IMG/VR virus record: IMGVR_UViG_2778261417_000015
Coordinates: 1-31,156 of that record
DNA: 31,156 bases
Strand: one strand, 5' to 3'
Origin: a virus
Lineage: Duplodnaviria; Heunggongvirae; Uroviricota; Caudoviricetes
Every line of letters starts with the position of its first letter. Position 1 is the stretch's first letter. Under the pieces are notes generated by a model, which did not search any database, was not told the DNA's origin, and saw nothing but the letters and a program-made list of their open reading frames with translations. Shown piece after piece: positions 7,985-16,880 of the stretch. The translations under genes were made by a program, and so were the position numbers.

Positions 7985-8740
7985 TCAGCTATGAAATCTA
8001 TATGCCCTAGACTGGCTTACCAGAACTTTCGCGCAGATACGGAGAGATGAAAAATCACCGTCCTCGATATACCAGGTCTCATATTTTTTATTGTCAGAAA
8101 TCACTGCTAATTTTTTGTGCTGTTTTTGTAGCCGTTTGATATAGAGATCATTGTCCAGAACGAAAATATAAATGCCGTCACCGTCAAAACAGTCGATGCT
8201 GATGTCGACGAATATCTGGTCGCGGGGCTCGAACGTGCCTGACATCGAATCGCCATTAACAGCAATCATTTTTATATGGTCTGCAGGGCGCCCACCAAAG
8301 ACAGCATGAGCCTCTTCGGTCGAATACTCTATGGATCTAATAGTCTCAATAAATTCATCTCGCACAAGAATTCCTTGCCCAGCACTAGCCTGAATATCAA
8401 AAACGTCTACTCGAAAAGAATCATCCCTCACTGCCATATGCCCTTCGGATATGCCATCTGCTCCACTATCGCCTAAAAGGTAAGACGAAGATGTGCCAAT
8501 TATAGCCGCCAATTCCTGCAGCTTCCCACGTCTCGGAATGGATTCCCCATTGAACCACTTGCTTACCGCTTTCGGCGTTAGCTTCATTCGTTTGGCTATT
8601 TCAGCCTGACGACCATGAGCAGGTAAACCAGCTTTATCACAGGCCAGCGCTAGCCGTTGGGAGAATTCAGTACGCGCTTTTTCTTCTTGAACCATAGGTT
8701 CAATCATAATATCACTTGCGTGAACTATCAGTTCCGACAT
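7985..8740 (-). CDS. cI: CI-type prophage repressor (HTH_XRE plus S24 LexA-like peptidase domain), 251 aa
   Basis: N-terminal HTH (QAEIAKRMKLTPKAVSKWFNGESIP) and C-terminal S24 autopeptidase motifs (AVNGDSMSGTF ... LYIKRL). Divergent from the cro-like gene. Start may be internal or leaderless. Confidence 0.85.
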   Translation of the reverse strand: MSELIVHASDIMIEPMVQEEKARTEFSQRLALACDKAGLPAHGRQAEIAKRMKLTPKAVSKWFNGESIPRRGKLQELAAIIGTSSSYLLGDSGADGISEGHMAVRDDSFRVDVFDIQASAGQGILVRDEFIETIRSIEYSTEEAHAVFGGRPADHIKMIAVNGDSMSGTFEPRDQIFVDISIDCFDGDGIYIFVLDNDLYIKRLQKQHKKLAVISDNKKYETWYIEDGDFSSLRICAKVLVSQSRAYRFHS

Positions 8741-8775: not shown

Positions 8776-9015
8776 ATGCAACCTAAAAACCTTGGCGACA
8801 TCATCAAGCAAATCCGTGTGCCGGTGGTGGCAAAGGCATGTGAGCGCACGCCGCGAGCAATTTACAAATGGATAAACAGCGGCTGTTTGCCACGAACCGA
8901 TTACACCGGTGAAACCGAATACGCATCAAAAATCGCAGCTGTATCGGATGGCCTGTTCACCGCAAGCCAGATTCTGGAAATCAGCAAACCGAAATCGGTT
9001 CAACCAGCTGCTTAA
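8776..9015 (+). CDS. Cro-like HTH regulator (79 aa)
   Basis: Small ORF divergent from cI with GAGGG RBS. Basic HTH-like N-terminus. Function assigned mainly by position. Confidence 0.6.
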   Translation: MQPKNLGDIIKQIRVPVVAKACERTPRAIYKWINSGCLPRTDYTGETEYASKIAAVSDGLFTASQILEISKPKSVQPAA

Positions 9016-9031
9016 TTTATTCGTTCACCAC

Positions 9032-9079
9032 CGCTCTTTAACAATCTGGAACCCTATTAAACCGGCTGAGTAATCAGCC
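9032..9079 (+). promoter_or_regulatory. nutR-like element: boxA consensus plus downstream hairpin
   Basis: CGCTCTTTAACAAT (9032-9045) matches the boxA consensus; perfect hairpin GGCTGA-GTAA-TCAGCC at 9064-9079, 17 nt after the stop of the cro-like gene. Confidence 0.45.
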
Positions 9080-9112
9080 AATCATTAACTATTCAACGAA
9101 AGGGATAGCGAT

Positions 9113-9655
9113 ATGCAATCACTTACGTATCAACAGAGTACCGGAATACACAGCAGCGTGATGATAAATCGCGCTCAACCGGAACCGGACAATAACCATG
9201 AGTTGATCCGCGCGGCGGTTCGCGCCTGGTCAGCTGCTATCGACAATCAGGACGTGGTATGCGCGCTGATTATCAACGAGTACCGGGAGCAGGGCGGCAC
9301 AGCGATCAACTTTCCGGAAGATGTGAGCCGGGCCAGGCAGAAGTTATTTCGTTTTCTCGATAACCGGTTCGACTCCGATCAGTACCGCGAGAACGTTCGC
9401 GAGCTGACGCCAGCGATTATGGCTGTCCTGCCGCTTGAATACCGTACGCGGCTGCTTCCACAGAACGACACGATGTCTTTGATTGCTTCTGCAATGAAAG
9501 AGTGTGCTGAGGCTAAGCAGGCGGTACTCCTTGGCGCGCCAGAGCATCAGAAATTGAAGGAGGTAAGCGAAGGTATAGCGTCGCTGTTCCGACTCATGCC
9601 TGAACAGGTAGGCCCGCTGATGACGATGGTCACTTCGATGCTGGGAGTTATGTGA
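9113..9655 (+). CDS. YdaT-like protein in the cII position (180 aa)
   Basis: Intact ORF directly after the nut-like site. The N-terminal segment resembles recalled YdaT-family proteins found after cro-like genes. Functional assignment is tentative. Confidence 0.45.
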   Translation: MQSLTYQQSTGIHSSVMINRAQPEPDNNHELIRAAVRAWSAAIDNQDVVCALIINEYREQGGTAINFPEDVSRARQKLFRFLDNRFDSDQYRENVRELTPAIMAVLPLEYRTRLLPQNDTMSLIASAMKECAEAKQAVLLGAPEHQKLKEVSEGIASLFRLMPEQVGPLMTMVTSMLGVM

Positions 9656-12849: not shown

Positions 12850-12868
12850 TAGACTATGATTTTTATGC

Positions 12869-13621
12869 TTAGTCATGTTTAAATCCTGGATTCCCTATAG
12901 AATTTGCCTCGAAGGATTTTTGAATCTGATAGTGCTCAATTTCCTGTTTAATGTTAGTGATTTCATCTTTAAGTTTTTCATTATCTGCGTAGGCTTGCGC
13001 TAAATCCTTCTCTAGATCAAGAATTTTATTGTTTTGCTCTTTAACCATTTTATCCGAGTGAATCGCCTGTTCGCTAAAGCGTGTTGATGATTCCTTCAGG
13101 GCTGTTTGTGCTTTAAGTAGCTCTTCTAATTCCAGCTTGAGTTTATCCCGTTCTGCAGTAATCTCACCCATCCTCTCCTGAGATTTCACAATACTTTCAC
13201 GCATTTCTTGTATTTCTTTCTCTGCCCCAGCCTTGAATCGATTATATGTAACGTCCCGTTTTGCCCTATATCTCTCCACACTGATATCAGCAACTAACGC
13301 CTTCTTGCGTCGAATCGCCATCAATACTGAGGTTCGTGAAATAGGCTTAGACTGCAAAGCAGTAAATTTCTCGTTGATGATTGGCAAAGCAATTGCCAAA
13401 AGTATAGCAATTAGAAGAGGAAGCAGAAAAATAATTGGATATGTATTGCTTATAAAGGTCAGCCTTGATTCGATTTTCATTTCACTGAAAAGCAAAACAG
13501 CCACAGCCTTCCAATTGCATGCAAACCAAGACAAGATAAAGACACCATAGAAAGGGCTTTTGAATCGCTCTGTAGATGTTTTTTGAACTGAAAAGTAAAT
13601 TTCTTTTATTGATTCCCACAT
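12869..13621 (-). CDS. Membrane protein: two predicted transmembrane helices plus long coiled coil (250 aa), opposite strand
   Basis: Hydrophobic segments (FYGVFILSWFACNWKAVAVLLF; YPIIFLLPLLIAILLAIALPII) followed by heptad-rich charged sequence. Strongly AT-rich. Orientation opposes flanking phage genes. Confidence 0.6.
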   Translation of the reverse strand: MWESIKEIYFSVQKTSTERFKSPFYGVFILSWFACNWKAVAVLLFSEMKIESRLTFISNTYPIIFLLPLLIAILLAIALPIINEKFTALQSKPISRTSVLMAIRRKKALVADISVERYRAKRDVTYNRFKAGAEKEIQEMRESIVKSQERMGEITAERDKLKLELEELLKAQTALKESSTRFSEQAIHSDKMVKEQNNKILDLEKDLAQAYADNEKLKDEITNIKQEIEHYQIQKSFEANSIGNPGFKHD

Positions 13622-13790
13622 ATCGCATGAGCCATGTCAGAAGTAAACTATGTCAATCATACCCAACAGGGGATGCCATAACTATAATAAAACACTAAAA
13701 AACGGCAAAGAAGTAGAAAAATACTACGCCCTACAGGTGAAGCTGAGTTGGTTGGCGATAATTGTGGCGGCACCAAAGGTAAGAACGAAG

Positions 13791-13809
13791 AAGGGGCAAC
13801 CCCTTTTAT
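13791..13809 (+). terminator. Possible short terminator-like hairpin
   Basis: AAGGGG-CAA-CCCCTT followed by TTAT, inside the intergenic region of the accessory island. Confidence 0.3.
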
Positions 13810-13964
13810 GGGGGTGGGATTCGACCATGCGACCACTTTTCTGGTAAGCGCAGTATCAATGCGCCGCTTTCGGCCGCTCAGCCATCCCGCAATGTTTGGA
13901 ATTGATAAAATTTATCTAATACCGTTAAGTGGACGCCAATTATCCATTTTTATTAGGTGGTAAT

Positions 13965-15964: not shown

Positions 15965-16101
15965 AAAAGGAAGCCATTGCAGCACTCAAAACTCGCTGGC
16001 AGCGCCAACGCCTGTACCGCTTCCCCGGCTCAGTCCTGACCTATTACCGAATCATCCATAACGCAGCCCGTCTAATTCAGAAAGCAGGAGCCACGCAATG
16101 A
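15961..16101 (+). CDS. Small hypothetical protein (46 aa), translationally coupled
   Basis: Hand-translated ORF (MKKEAIAALKTRWQRQRLYRFPGSVLTYYRIIHNAARLIQKAGATQ) with ATGA overlaps at both ends, to the ninG stop and the Q-like start. Confidence 0.4.
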   Translation: MKKEAIAALKTRWQRQRLYRFPGSVLTYYRIIHNAARLIQKAGATQ

Positions 16102-16787
16102 ATACGCAATATCTTGAGTTTGTTCGACAACAGCTCATCGTGGCAACCGCTGACCTGAGCGGAGCGACGAAAGGGCAACTCATAGCTTTCGCTGAGAACG
16201 CGCAATTCACCGCGACGGCGCGCTGCCGGGGCCGGAAAAAAGTATTCGACAAGGATAAGCAGCGCATGGTGAACCCGGACGGCCCGCCGATGAGCGGCAG
16301 CCAGTCGCGCGCCAAAGGCTCATCAATCGCTCTGGTAAGCCCGGTAGAGTTCAGCACCGCATCCTGGCGACGCGCTGTTTTGTCACTGGAAGAACATCAG
16401 AAGGCCTGGCTTCTGTGGAACTACAGCGAGAACATCCGCTTTGAGTATCAGGTGGCGATCACTCAGTGGGCGTGGGCAGAGTTTCGTGAACAGCTCGGCG
16501 TGAAGAGGGTGGCGGGCAAGACGATGGAGCGCCTGAAGAAACTGATATGGCTGGCGGCGCAGGACACAAAAGAAGAGCTGGCAGGGCGTGAGACGTACGA
16601 ATACCAGGTGCTGGCGTCGCTGGTTGGCGTAACACCAAAGAACTGGTCAGAGACCTTTACGGACCACTGGATGGCGATGAGACGCATCTTCCTGAGCCTA
16701 GATAGTGGCGCTTTATTGCAGGTAACACGATCACGTTCACAACAAAAGGCGACAAACTCTCATGAAAGTCTTGCAAAACTGGATTGA
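16098..16787 (+). CDS. Late-gene antiterminator Q-like protein (229 aa)
   Basis: Assigned by position: last gene of the nin region, followed by a candidate promoter, strong terminators and the lysis cassette. Sequence resembles the recalled phage antitermination Q family, unverified. Confidence 0.55.
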   Translation: MNTQYLEFVRQQLIVATADLSGATKGQLIAFAENAQFTATARCRGRKKVFDKDKQRMVNPDGPPMSGSQSRAKGSSIALVSPVEFSTASWRRAVLSLEEHQKAWLLWNYSENIRFEYQVAITQWAWAEFREQLGVKRVAGKTMERLKKLIWLAAQDTKEELAGRETYEYQVLASLVGVTPKNWSETFTDHWMAMRRIFLSLDSGALLQVTRSRSQQKATNSHESLAKLD

Positions 16788-16798
16788 AACGCATATAT
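16770..16798 (+). promoter_or_regulatory. Candidate late promoter (pR'-like)
   Basis: TTGCAA (16770-16775), 17-bp spacer, TATATT (16793-16798), overlapping the 3' end of the Q-like gene and about 50 nt upstream of a strong terminator. Confidence 0.35.
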
Positions 16799-16851
16799 TT
16801 CATGTAAATCTGATATCGTCGCCATAGCTTCGGTAGTCGACAAACATTAAG

Positions 16852-16880
16852 AGCCTCGCCATCGTGCGGGGCTTTTTTAT
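16852..16880 (+). terminator. Rho-independent terminator (tR'-like)
   Basis: GCCTCGC-CATCGT-GCGGGGC (7-bp stem with one G-U pair) followed by TTTTTTATTT. Confidence 0.6.

Follow-up and report, generated by a model that had tools for sequence, protein, structure and literature searches.

A conserved rrn-type boxA and GNRA hairpin between cro and cII of a lambdoid prophage as a candidate nut-type site that may act without N

Early antitermination in lambdoid phages is taught as the action of an N protein at nut sites (phages lambda, P22 and 21) or of a put RNA (HK022). Here, we describe a cassette that is nut-like by sequence and position, namely a boxA followed by a GNRA hairpin between cro and cII, in the lambdoid prophage of IMG/VR virus record IMGVR_UViG_2778261417_000015 (positions 1 to 31,156; this whole stretch of 31,156 nucleotides (nt) is called the window below). 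The left arms of the phages that carry this cassette nevertheless hold unrelated genes in the position of N, or put RNA, and the boxA of the cassette is a copy of the host ribosomal boxA.

Several of the described systems do without N. The put RNA acts independently of proteins, and HK022 has no N (PMC9378689). Nus complexes nucleated by boxA shield untranslated RNAs from Rho at the rrn and CRISPR (clustered regularly interspaced short palindromic repeats) loci (PMC7665894). The N-independent boxA antitermination is established at CRISPR arrays (PMC7665894), and an N-independent function of boxA is established at suhB (PMC5725501). The RNA called rrn cac-boxA-spacer is the best binder of NusA (PMC2724277), and the rrn region in which it lies is reported to need neither N nor boxB for its action on Rho terminators (Berg et al., as cited in PMC2724277).

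A preliminary description of the window had reported a boxA and, 18 nt from it, a perfect hairpin with a stem of 6 base pairs (bp) and a 4-nt loop. Both were confirmed, at 9032-9045 and 9064-9079, respectively. The position after cro, which had been compared to that of nutR, was also borne out, as both parts lie in the 97-nt gap from cro (8776-9015) to cII (9113-9655), the place of nutR in lambda and P22. Past the stop of the cro-like open reading frame (ORF), the window reads taatttattcgttcaccaCCGCTCTTTAACAATctggaaccctattaaaccGGCTGAGTAATCAGCCaatc..., and the element consists of the following parts:

9032-9045, + strand: boxA CGCTCTTTAACAAT, read directly from the window
9029-9053, + strand: extended boxA, CAC followed by CGCTCTTTAACAA (core 9032-9044) and the flank TCTGGAACC; predicted site of NusB/NusE, with NusA on the flanks
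9046-9063, + strand: boxA-hairpin spacer of 18 nt, C-rich and G-poor, with a conserved AACCC(A/T) motif (from the alignment)
9064-9079, + strand: boxB-like hairpin GGCUGA-GUAA-UCAGCC with a perfect 6-bp stem and a GNRA tetraloop (from sequence and folding)

The boxA had been said to match the rrn form exactly. This holds for GCTCTTTAACAA but not for the first base, which is C, as in lambda and P22, where rrn has U. The 13-mer CGCTCTTTAACAA has a single exact match in the window, and 4 matches were found when up to two mismatches were allowed, against 0.87 expected (0 of 100 shuffles reached 4). Its part GCUCUUUAACA fits the consensus GYTCTTTAANA (Baniulyte et al. 2017, PMC5725501) and is the sole perfect match to it in the window. 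At up to one mismatch, the same consensus gave 10 matches, 9 of them with exactly one, versus 2.75 expected, and none of the 100 shuffles reached 10.

Perfect 6-bp hairpins with a loop of 3-8 nt are not rare, being present in about 5% of 45-nt segments. The hairpin at the nutR position is the sole perfect 6-bp stem closing a GNRA tetraloop on both strands of the 31 kb, and a window-wide search for a second copy with up to 3 mismatches gave none. In the fold of positions 9016-9115, the hairpin was present in both the minimum free energy and the centroid structures, and boxA was unpaired in the centroid. The free energy of the hairpin alone was -8.9 kcal/mol, compared with -7.9 for lambda boxB, and the overall stability of the 100-nt region was unremarkable (z = -0.67). 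The composition of positions 8990-9069 was C 0.29 and G 0.15. An Rfam search with the cassette and the leftward leader gave no match at the gathering score or at E up to 5. An intrinsic terminator resembling tR1 was rejected, as the hairpin is followed by AAUCAUUAAC with no U-run and the terminator scan was silent on both strands.

The boxA also matches a ribosomal signal. The sequence GCTCTTTAACAATCTGGAAC is identical at 20 of 20 positions to the boxA of the rrn 16S-23S spacer of many Enterobacterales. A scan of one genome per species with the 18-mer TCTTTAACAATCTGGAAC gave at least 120 loci, and more than 110 of the 120 matches listed were 16S-23S spacer boxA (TGCTCTTTAACAATCTGGAACAAGCTGAAAATTGAAAC) of Yersiniaceae, Morganellaceae, Pectobacteriaceae and their relatives. 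With the upstream CAC and the downstream AAU included, the element agrees with the E. coli rrn cac-boxA-spacer RNA at 17 of 20 positions (PMC2724277). The arrangement differs: the dispensable hairpin of rrn (boxB) stands ahead of boxA, whereas in the window a conserved hairpin follows boxA. Also, unlike the boxA of rrn, CRISPR and suhB, the site in the window lies inside an mRNA between two translated genes. It shares with rrn and CRISPR a plausible need to shield a long untranslated RNA from Rho (PMC7665894).

Among the phage sites, the nutR of P22, which is the target of gp24, resembles the cassette in its slot between cro and c1/cII and in the order of boxA, spacer and hairpin. An alignment with the nut sites of related phages, proposed in the preliminary description, brought out this relation. 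Namely, P22 nutR CGCTCTTTACCAATCTGAACC-GCCGACAACGCGG...AACTAACTATTAAC aligns with CGCTCTTTAACAATCTGGAACC...GGCTGAGTAATCAGCC...CATTAACTATTCAAC of the window over boxA, its 3' flank and the distal part, and both phages have an AACTATT motif ahead of the cII-type start. As these three parts align, the cassette is, on the evidence of its sequence, related to a genuine nutR of the N type, from which its hairpin differs. The P22 boxB has a 5-bp stem and a GACAA pentaloop near boxA, whereas the window has a 6-bp stem and a GUAA tetraloop 18 nt past CGCTCTTTAACAAT. Moreover, the boxB of P22 recurs at its nutL and the phage has a gene for gp24, while searches of the window gave no further copy of the hairpin and no gene resembling that of gp24.

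The nutR and nutL of lambda also combine boxA with a GNRA-like hairpin on the early transcripts, and a C-rich, G-poor (rut-like) stretch follows cro. Lambda nutR lies within the rut region of tR1, and the site in the window likewise lies in a C-rich, G-poor stretch. The lambda boxA is the weaker CGCUCUUA, which requires N, whereas the boxA of the window has the consensus form CUUUAACAA, and the window has neither a detected N nor a matching boxB at nutL. Its hairpin loop is a true tetraloop, compared with the pentaloop in lambda and P22, and the boxA-hairpin gap of 18 nt is longer than in either of them.

HK022 has its putR in the same slot, the gap between cro and cII. The put RNA of HK022 is a two-stem RNA of ~70 nt that binds the zinc-binding domain of the beta' subunit and acts without Nus factors, whereas the window has a boxA and a 16-nt hairpin. 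The cro-cII gap of the window showed no resemblance in sequence or size to HK022 putR, and a put-like RNA at this place was dropped from consideration because of this lack of putR similarity. The nut sites of mEp021 and mEpimmI also consist of boxA and boxB with A-rich loops in non-canonical arrangements, which shows that nut systems vary (PMC11893012). In those phages, an arginine-rich antiterminator (Gp17) has been identified and is conserved together with the sites, while none was identified in the window.

The cassette was then followed across genomes. Pattern scans and look-ups in viral contigs, metagenomes, one E. coli genome and the loci encoding an identical Cro gave 34 copies in 19 distinct versions. 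A protein identical to the Cro of the window was found in 7 loci, which share its architecture. All 34 copies are flanked by a gene of the cro type on one side and one of the cII type on the other. Upstream, at least 9 unrelated kinds of cro 3' end were seen, and the gene downstream is either of the phi80/YdaT type or of the lambda CII type, which are mutually unrelated. For the conservation analysis, 15-16 distinct representatives were used, and the mean pairwise identity of the 50-nt cassette was 90%, compared with 57-61% for its flanks. The loci had been found by an 18-21-nt seed within boxA; hence, the identity was also taken outside of the seed, where the spacer was 81% and the hairpin 82% identical, compared with 62-65% for neighbouring segments of equal length. 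A chance occurrence of the element was ruled out by this conservation together with its uniqueness.

The boxA keeps a perfect functional consensus in nearly all copies. In the 17 distinct versions, the stem GGCTGA/TCAGCC is nearly invariant and the loop is GNAA (GUAA, GCAA, GGAA or GAAA) in 14, with the variation centred on loop position 2. The exceptions are GUUA, UUAG and GUGU, the latter two with stems lengthened to 7-8 bp. In locus L009, the place of the hairpin is taken by another one. The hairpin variants do not follow the type of the left leader.

A search of 5,426 complete E. coli genomes gave the cassette in a single one, and a search of 50,697 sequenced phage records did not give it at all, with only matches of boxA length, in lytic phages. 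In 44 phage records, including phages of Klebsiella, Dickeya, Yersinia, Pectobacterium, Erwinia, Aeromonas and others (e.g., MK380014 2011-2036 and MH059639 39589-39614), ACCGCTCTTTAACAATCTGG and the 3' flank that it has in the cassette are found between genes, in DNA without annotation, and these phages appear to bear the same rrn-spacer-type boxA.

To the left, the pL operon of the window was searched for an N protein and for a counterpart of the site. The features of this side, including those of other phages that carry the cassette, are as follows:

6599-6856, - strand: first pL gene, in the position of N, encoding an acidic protein of 86 amino acids (aa) that is not N-like (phrog_21696, unknown function; no Pfam match)
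6980-7172, - strand: leftward counterpart, boxA-like GCTTCTTTAACAA (7172-7160) and then a structured leader of ~165 nt with the hairpin CACG-AAAA-CGTG, similar to phi80 nutL
7192-7207, - strand: 5' hairpin of the pL transcript, GCUGA-GCGAAG-UUAGC, whose arm sequences are shared with the nutR hairpin
6580-6597, - strand: tL1-like intrinsic terminator, a hairpin of 7 pairs (5 of them G-C) and a U-run (TTTTATCGCC) just after the first pL gene
L009 ~4848-4774, L016 ~3634-3570 and L259 ~3874-3815, - strand: putL-like RNAs of three other loci, in coordinates with the cassette oriented +

No match to lambda N, P22 gp24 or phi80 N was found in the window by tblastn, nothing N-like was found among the pL-proximal genes by PHROG and Pfam scans, and a scan of the pL operon for arginine-rich motifs gave nothing credible. 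The only strongly basic ORF of this operon, of 46 aa at 6831-6691, lies in an alternative frame inside the 86-aa gene, with a TTG start and no Shine-Dalgarno sequence, and was dismissed as a by-product of purine-rich codons. The clustering of the ORFs of 19 cassette loci gave no candidate antiterminator family common to all of them, and the families found in most of these loci are unidentified ORFs of 50-115 aa.

Over 7230-6980, the leftward leader shows 92.6% identity to what is annotated as nutL in phi80 (M11919), and its consensus fold has 43 pairs, 8 of them with compensatory changes. The leader is common to phi80 'nutL', a PA2-type Stx2a phage (L027) and several prophages, with an identity of ~88-93%. 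The gene in the position of N is unrelated among the phages sharing this leader, with a product of 98 aa in phi80, 86 in the window and 87, 103, 59, 212 or 215 elsewhere. As the gene that follows differs in every phage, this suggests a protein-independent, perhaps put-like, leader RNA. The nutR hairpin is not repeated at the leader, where the hairpins are CACG-AAAA-CGTG and GCUGA-GCGAAG-UUAGC.

The cassette-bearing phages have at least three types of left leader. Leader types A, B and C all retain the hairpin at the 5' end of the pL transcript, while the MDK9L1-type phages keep the cassette and have no such hairpin. In three cassette phages, the left leader resembles HK022 putL (93% in L009, 83% in L016 and 80% in L259, over 60-75 nt), and no putR-like match was found in any cassette locus. 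A dedicated partnership of N and boxB is unlikely, though not impossible, as no N was found, the genes in its position are unrelated, leaders of the putL type occur and the hairpins do not track the leaders.

Some further observations were made on the left arms. The pL transcript opens with ~45 nt (GACAGCUGAGCGAAGUUAGCCAGC, with a 5-bp hairpin; window 7190-7210, - strand) that precede three otherwise different leader types, including the putL type; this conserved start was found in loci L009, L016, L020, L199, L259 and L261. The leftward leaders of L179, L259 and L263 contain a short conserved segment that looks coding, M(R)GAKRKxIYSSPFEAEW, which the window lacks. In locus L015, a leader with a boxA and the hairpin GCGAA-GATA-TTCGC is followed by the gene of an arginine-rich protein of 123 aa with a C-terminus like that of P22 gp24. 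A pL-like promoter with phi80-like operators is found ahead of that leader (L015 8060-8729, with the cassette on the + strand). This gp24-like gene is co-oriented with the nutR cassette and lies 6.8 kb downstream of it; the unit may be a second element or a rearrangement.

On the rightward transcript, the terminator scan gave no convincing intrinsic terminator on the + strand between nutR and Q. Most of the rightward operon is translated. Two features interrupt it:

12869-13621, - strand: coiled-coil/membrane-like gene of 250 aa and unknown function, reversed between ren and the nin region (phrog_4780)
12850-13928, + strand: stretch of ~0.9-1.1 kb without a convincing + strand gene, antisense through the gene 12869-13621 (from the ORF lists and the genes called in the relative L268)

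The early rightward transcript must cross the 12869-13621 gene antisense. On the + strand, the segment 13120-13300 has a strong excess of C over G (C 0.34 and G 0.09 at 13160-13239). This is the composition that Rho prefers, and the stretch 12850-13928 is a likely Rho target that a boxA complex would protect. A second near-boxA, TGCTCTTTAACCA, lies inside the antisense gene at 13035-13047 (+ strand), just upstream of the most C-rich and G-poor stretch of the region.

We tentatively favour, at a little under an even chance, the reading that the cassette is a functional nut-type site on the pR transcript that would protect it from Rho through host Nus factors and independently of N, with the GNRA hairpin as an accessory. 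The independence from N is suggested because boxA is of the rrn type (CUUUA), no N was found, the genes in the position of N are unrelated and putL-like left leaders occur. When RNA polymerase passes cro, the nascent RNA would expose the rrn-type consensus boxA (CAC-CGCUCUUUAACAAUCUGGAAC), to which NusB-NusE(S10) would bind, with NusA on the flanks. NusG and SuhB would join them, and the complex would assemble on the elongating polymerase, as it does at rrn operons and CRISPR arrays. The polymerase modified in this way would be Rho-resistant and could proceed through cII, the replication genes and the ~0.9-1.1-kb antisense stretch in the direction of the nin region and Q. The GNRA hairpin, which lies 18 nt further on than boxA, would act as a boxB-like accessory: it may stabilise the complex, keep boxA unpaired or represent a docking site that descends from a nutR of the P22 type. 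The preliminary description had left the choice between antitermination of the N type and that by host Nus factors. The nut-type site itself is supported by the P22 alignment and by conservation, the N type was not supported, as neither an N homologue nor a repeat at nutL was found, and the host alternative would be the better fit.

Several observations weigh against N-independent, Nus-mediated protection. The cassette has the N-type layout, with boxA before the hairpin, and a clear P22-nutR ancestry, and its stem is conserved in sequence, as a protein partner would explain. The formal counting of pairs gave 88.9% pairing, with only the basal pair varying (UA 7, CG 2, unpaired 9); the stem is too invariant for covariation to be informative, and the structure is backed by conservation and by the loop pattern. 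N proteins evolve fast, so that a homology search cannot exclude a diverged analogue. An intrinsic terminator is present in the left operon, with phi80 tL1A at the equivalent place, and rrn-type complexes are not known to defeat such terminators. As the rrn-type complex should not defeat it, a further leftward mechanism must exist, possibly the structured leader. Finally, some relatives do without the site. In phi80, CobraSix and E. coli PCP06021, cro and/or cII are kept (in PCP06021, cro is 85% identical and cII is of the YdaT type), the cro-cII gap is only ~30 nt, and no rightward boxA was found in the examined loci; for this reason, the cassette is an optional module, not essential to this type of genome. 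The absence of the motif from close relatives, which the preliminary description had taken as a sign against the site, is therefore seen in part, while in many prophages the cassette is conserved above its flanks.

If the hairpin were instead bound by an unrecognised N analogue acting with Nus factors, as in lambda and P22, the site would be a classical N-dependent nutR, which we consider unlikely but deserving of serious weight. It would account for the boxA-spacer-hairpin order, the sequence homology to P22 nutR, a loop restricted to GNAA, of the fold class bound by N peptides, and an invariant stem, as expected of a specific protein contact. The 5' hairpin of pL (GCUGA-GCGAAG-UUAGC), which shares both arms, could be its left partner, in L015 a leader with boxA and a GAUA loop precedes the arginine-rich protein that resembles gp24, and the left intrinsic terminator should be beyond Nus factors alone. 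However, searches of the window gave no homologue of N, gp24 or phi80 N and those of its pL operon no arginine-rich ORF, the first pL gene is acidic, and the genes in the position of N are unrelated in phages that share both cassette and leader. The proposed left partner is missing from the MDK9L1-type phages, which have the cassette, three cassette phages have put-type left arms, and the hairpin variants are independent of the leader type. As for L015, its N-like gene lies 6.8 kb past nutR, in the same orientation, and may belong to another element. A Nus complex tethered to boxA, with or without the hairpin, could also mainly repress or time the translation of the cII-type gene 70 nt downstream, with no processive antitermination. 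This is improbable in our estimate, even though it would parallel the action of Nus factors at suhB and that of N with Nus at nutL of lambda, every copy of the cassette is immediately followed by a cII-type gene, be it of one type or the other, and the cassette-less relatives are apparently viable, as would fit a modulatory role. Translational repression by boxA works with a distance of boxA to the Shine-Dalgarno sequence of up to 100 nt (PMC5725501). On the other hand, the element is conserved over two unrelated cII families with a variable spacing to the start codon, its position and homology are those of nutR, and the outcome at suhB is Rho termination of the operon, by which transcription of the replication genes and Q would be lost here.

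A functionless remnant of nutR from an N-type ancestor, kept as a junction for the exchange of lambdoid modules, has a similarly small probability. No cognate N was found, the stem covariation is almost nil, as after a recent spread, close relatives lack the cassette and the mosaic boundary is exact (cro homology to ~8994, phi80 cII homology from 9096). Yet nearly all copies keep a perfect functional-consensus boxA, and the loop changes cluster at the single free position of GNRA. The cassette also persists behind at least 9 cro types, two cII types and at least 3 left-leader types, and therefore it has been retained through many recombination events. Very improbable is a DNA operator in which the palindrome GGCTGA-N4-TCAGCC would bind a dimeric Cro, CI or CII/YdaT and the adjacent boxA would be incidental. 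The inverted repeat is perfect and stands beside regulatory genes, and YdaT-type proteins bind inverted repeats. But the repeat is conserved whichever type of cro, cI or cII flanks it, its centre is asymmetric and strand-specific (GNAA), as expected of RNA and not of a symmetric operator, and the palindrome and boxA move as one unit.

Returning to Nus-mediated protection without N, it is possible, though we lean somewhat against it, that the cassette is a self-sufficient antiterminator. It would mimic the rrn spacer boxA, recruit Nus factors without a phage protein and replace nutR or putR in N-less lambdoid prophages that combine HK022-like immunity with left leaders of the phi80 or put type. 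If host Nus factors alone serve the site, the N-independent uses of boxA, such as those at suhB and CRISPR arrays, would extend to phage early operons, and phages would borrow the rrn machinery directly. A self-sufficient cassette would be a third strategy of early antitermination beside N/nut and put. For annotators, a nut-like site alone is no warrant for inferring an N protein. The cassette, being compact (~50 nt), is also a candidate part for anti-Rho insulation in synthetic operons.

The window as a whole is a lambdoid prophage with the left-to-right order of CI, cro, the element, the cII/YdaT gene, an O-like initiator, DnaB helicase, ren, the foreign reverse gene, the nin genes, Q and the lysis genes. 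The genes around the element and its distal target are as follows:

7985-8740, - strand: S24-type CI repressor
8776-9015, + strand: cro-like gene of 79 aa, directly upstream of the element (phrog_35, transcriptional repressor)
9113-9655, + strand: phi80-type CII / YdaT-domain gene, directly downstream of the element (phrog_163, CII-like activator; Pfam YdaT_toxin)
16098-16787, + strand: Q-type late antiterminator gene, distal target of the pR transcript (phrog_304; Pfam Phage_antiter_Q, E = 2.4e-87)

The cI and cro proteins were judged HK022-like by eye from the sequences, without alignment, and the pL promoter/operator DNA is 81% identical to that of HK022 over 47 nt. Meanwhile, the cII and replication genes resemble those of phi80 and the Enterobacter phage CobraSix, and the 9113-9655 gene shows 78.5% DNA identity to phi80 cII. 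The homology to the cro relatives stops at ~8994, and that to phi80 cII begins at 9096.

Two minor observations concern other RNAs. A small G+C-rich hairpin, GCCGCYTAACSGGCGGC, extends over the stop codon of cro in phi80, CobraSix and PCP06021, within the ~30-nt gap (L001 6340-6360, L002 4165-4185 and L007 3253-3275). In the window, an Rfam match to isrJ (69.9 bits) was found at 16771-16876 (+ strand), directly after the Q gene. This region contains a promoter-like site (16771-16799) and a strong terminator (16849-16876), and the match resembles a short RNA of the prophage's late leader (pR'-tR') more than a free-standing small RNA gene.

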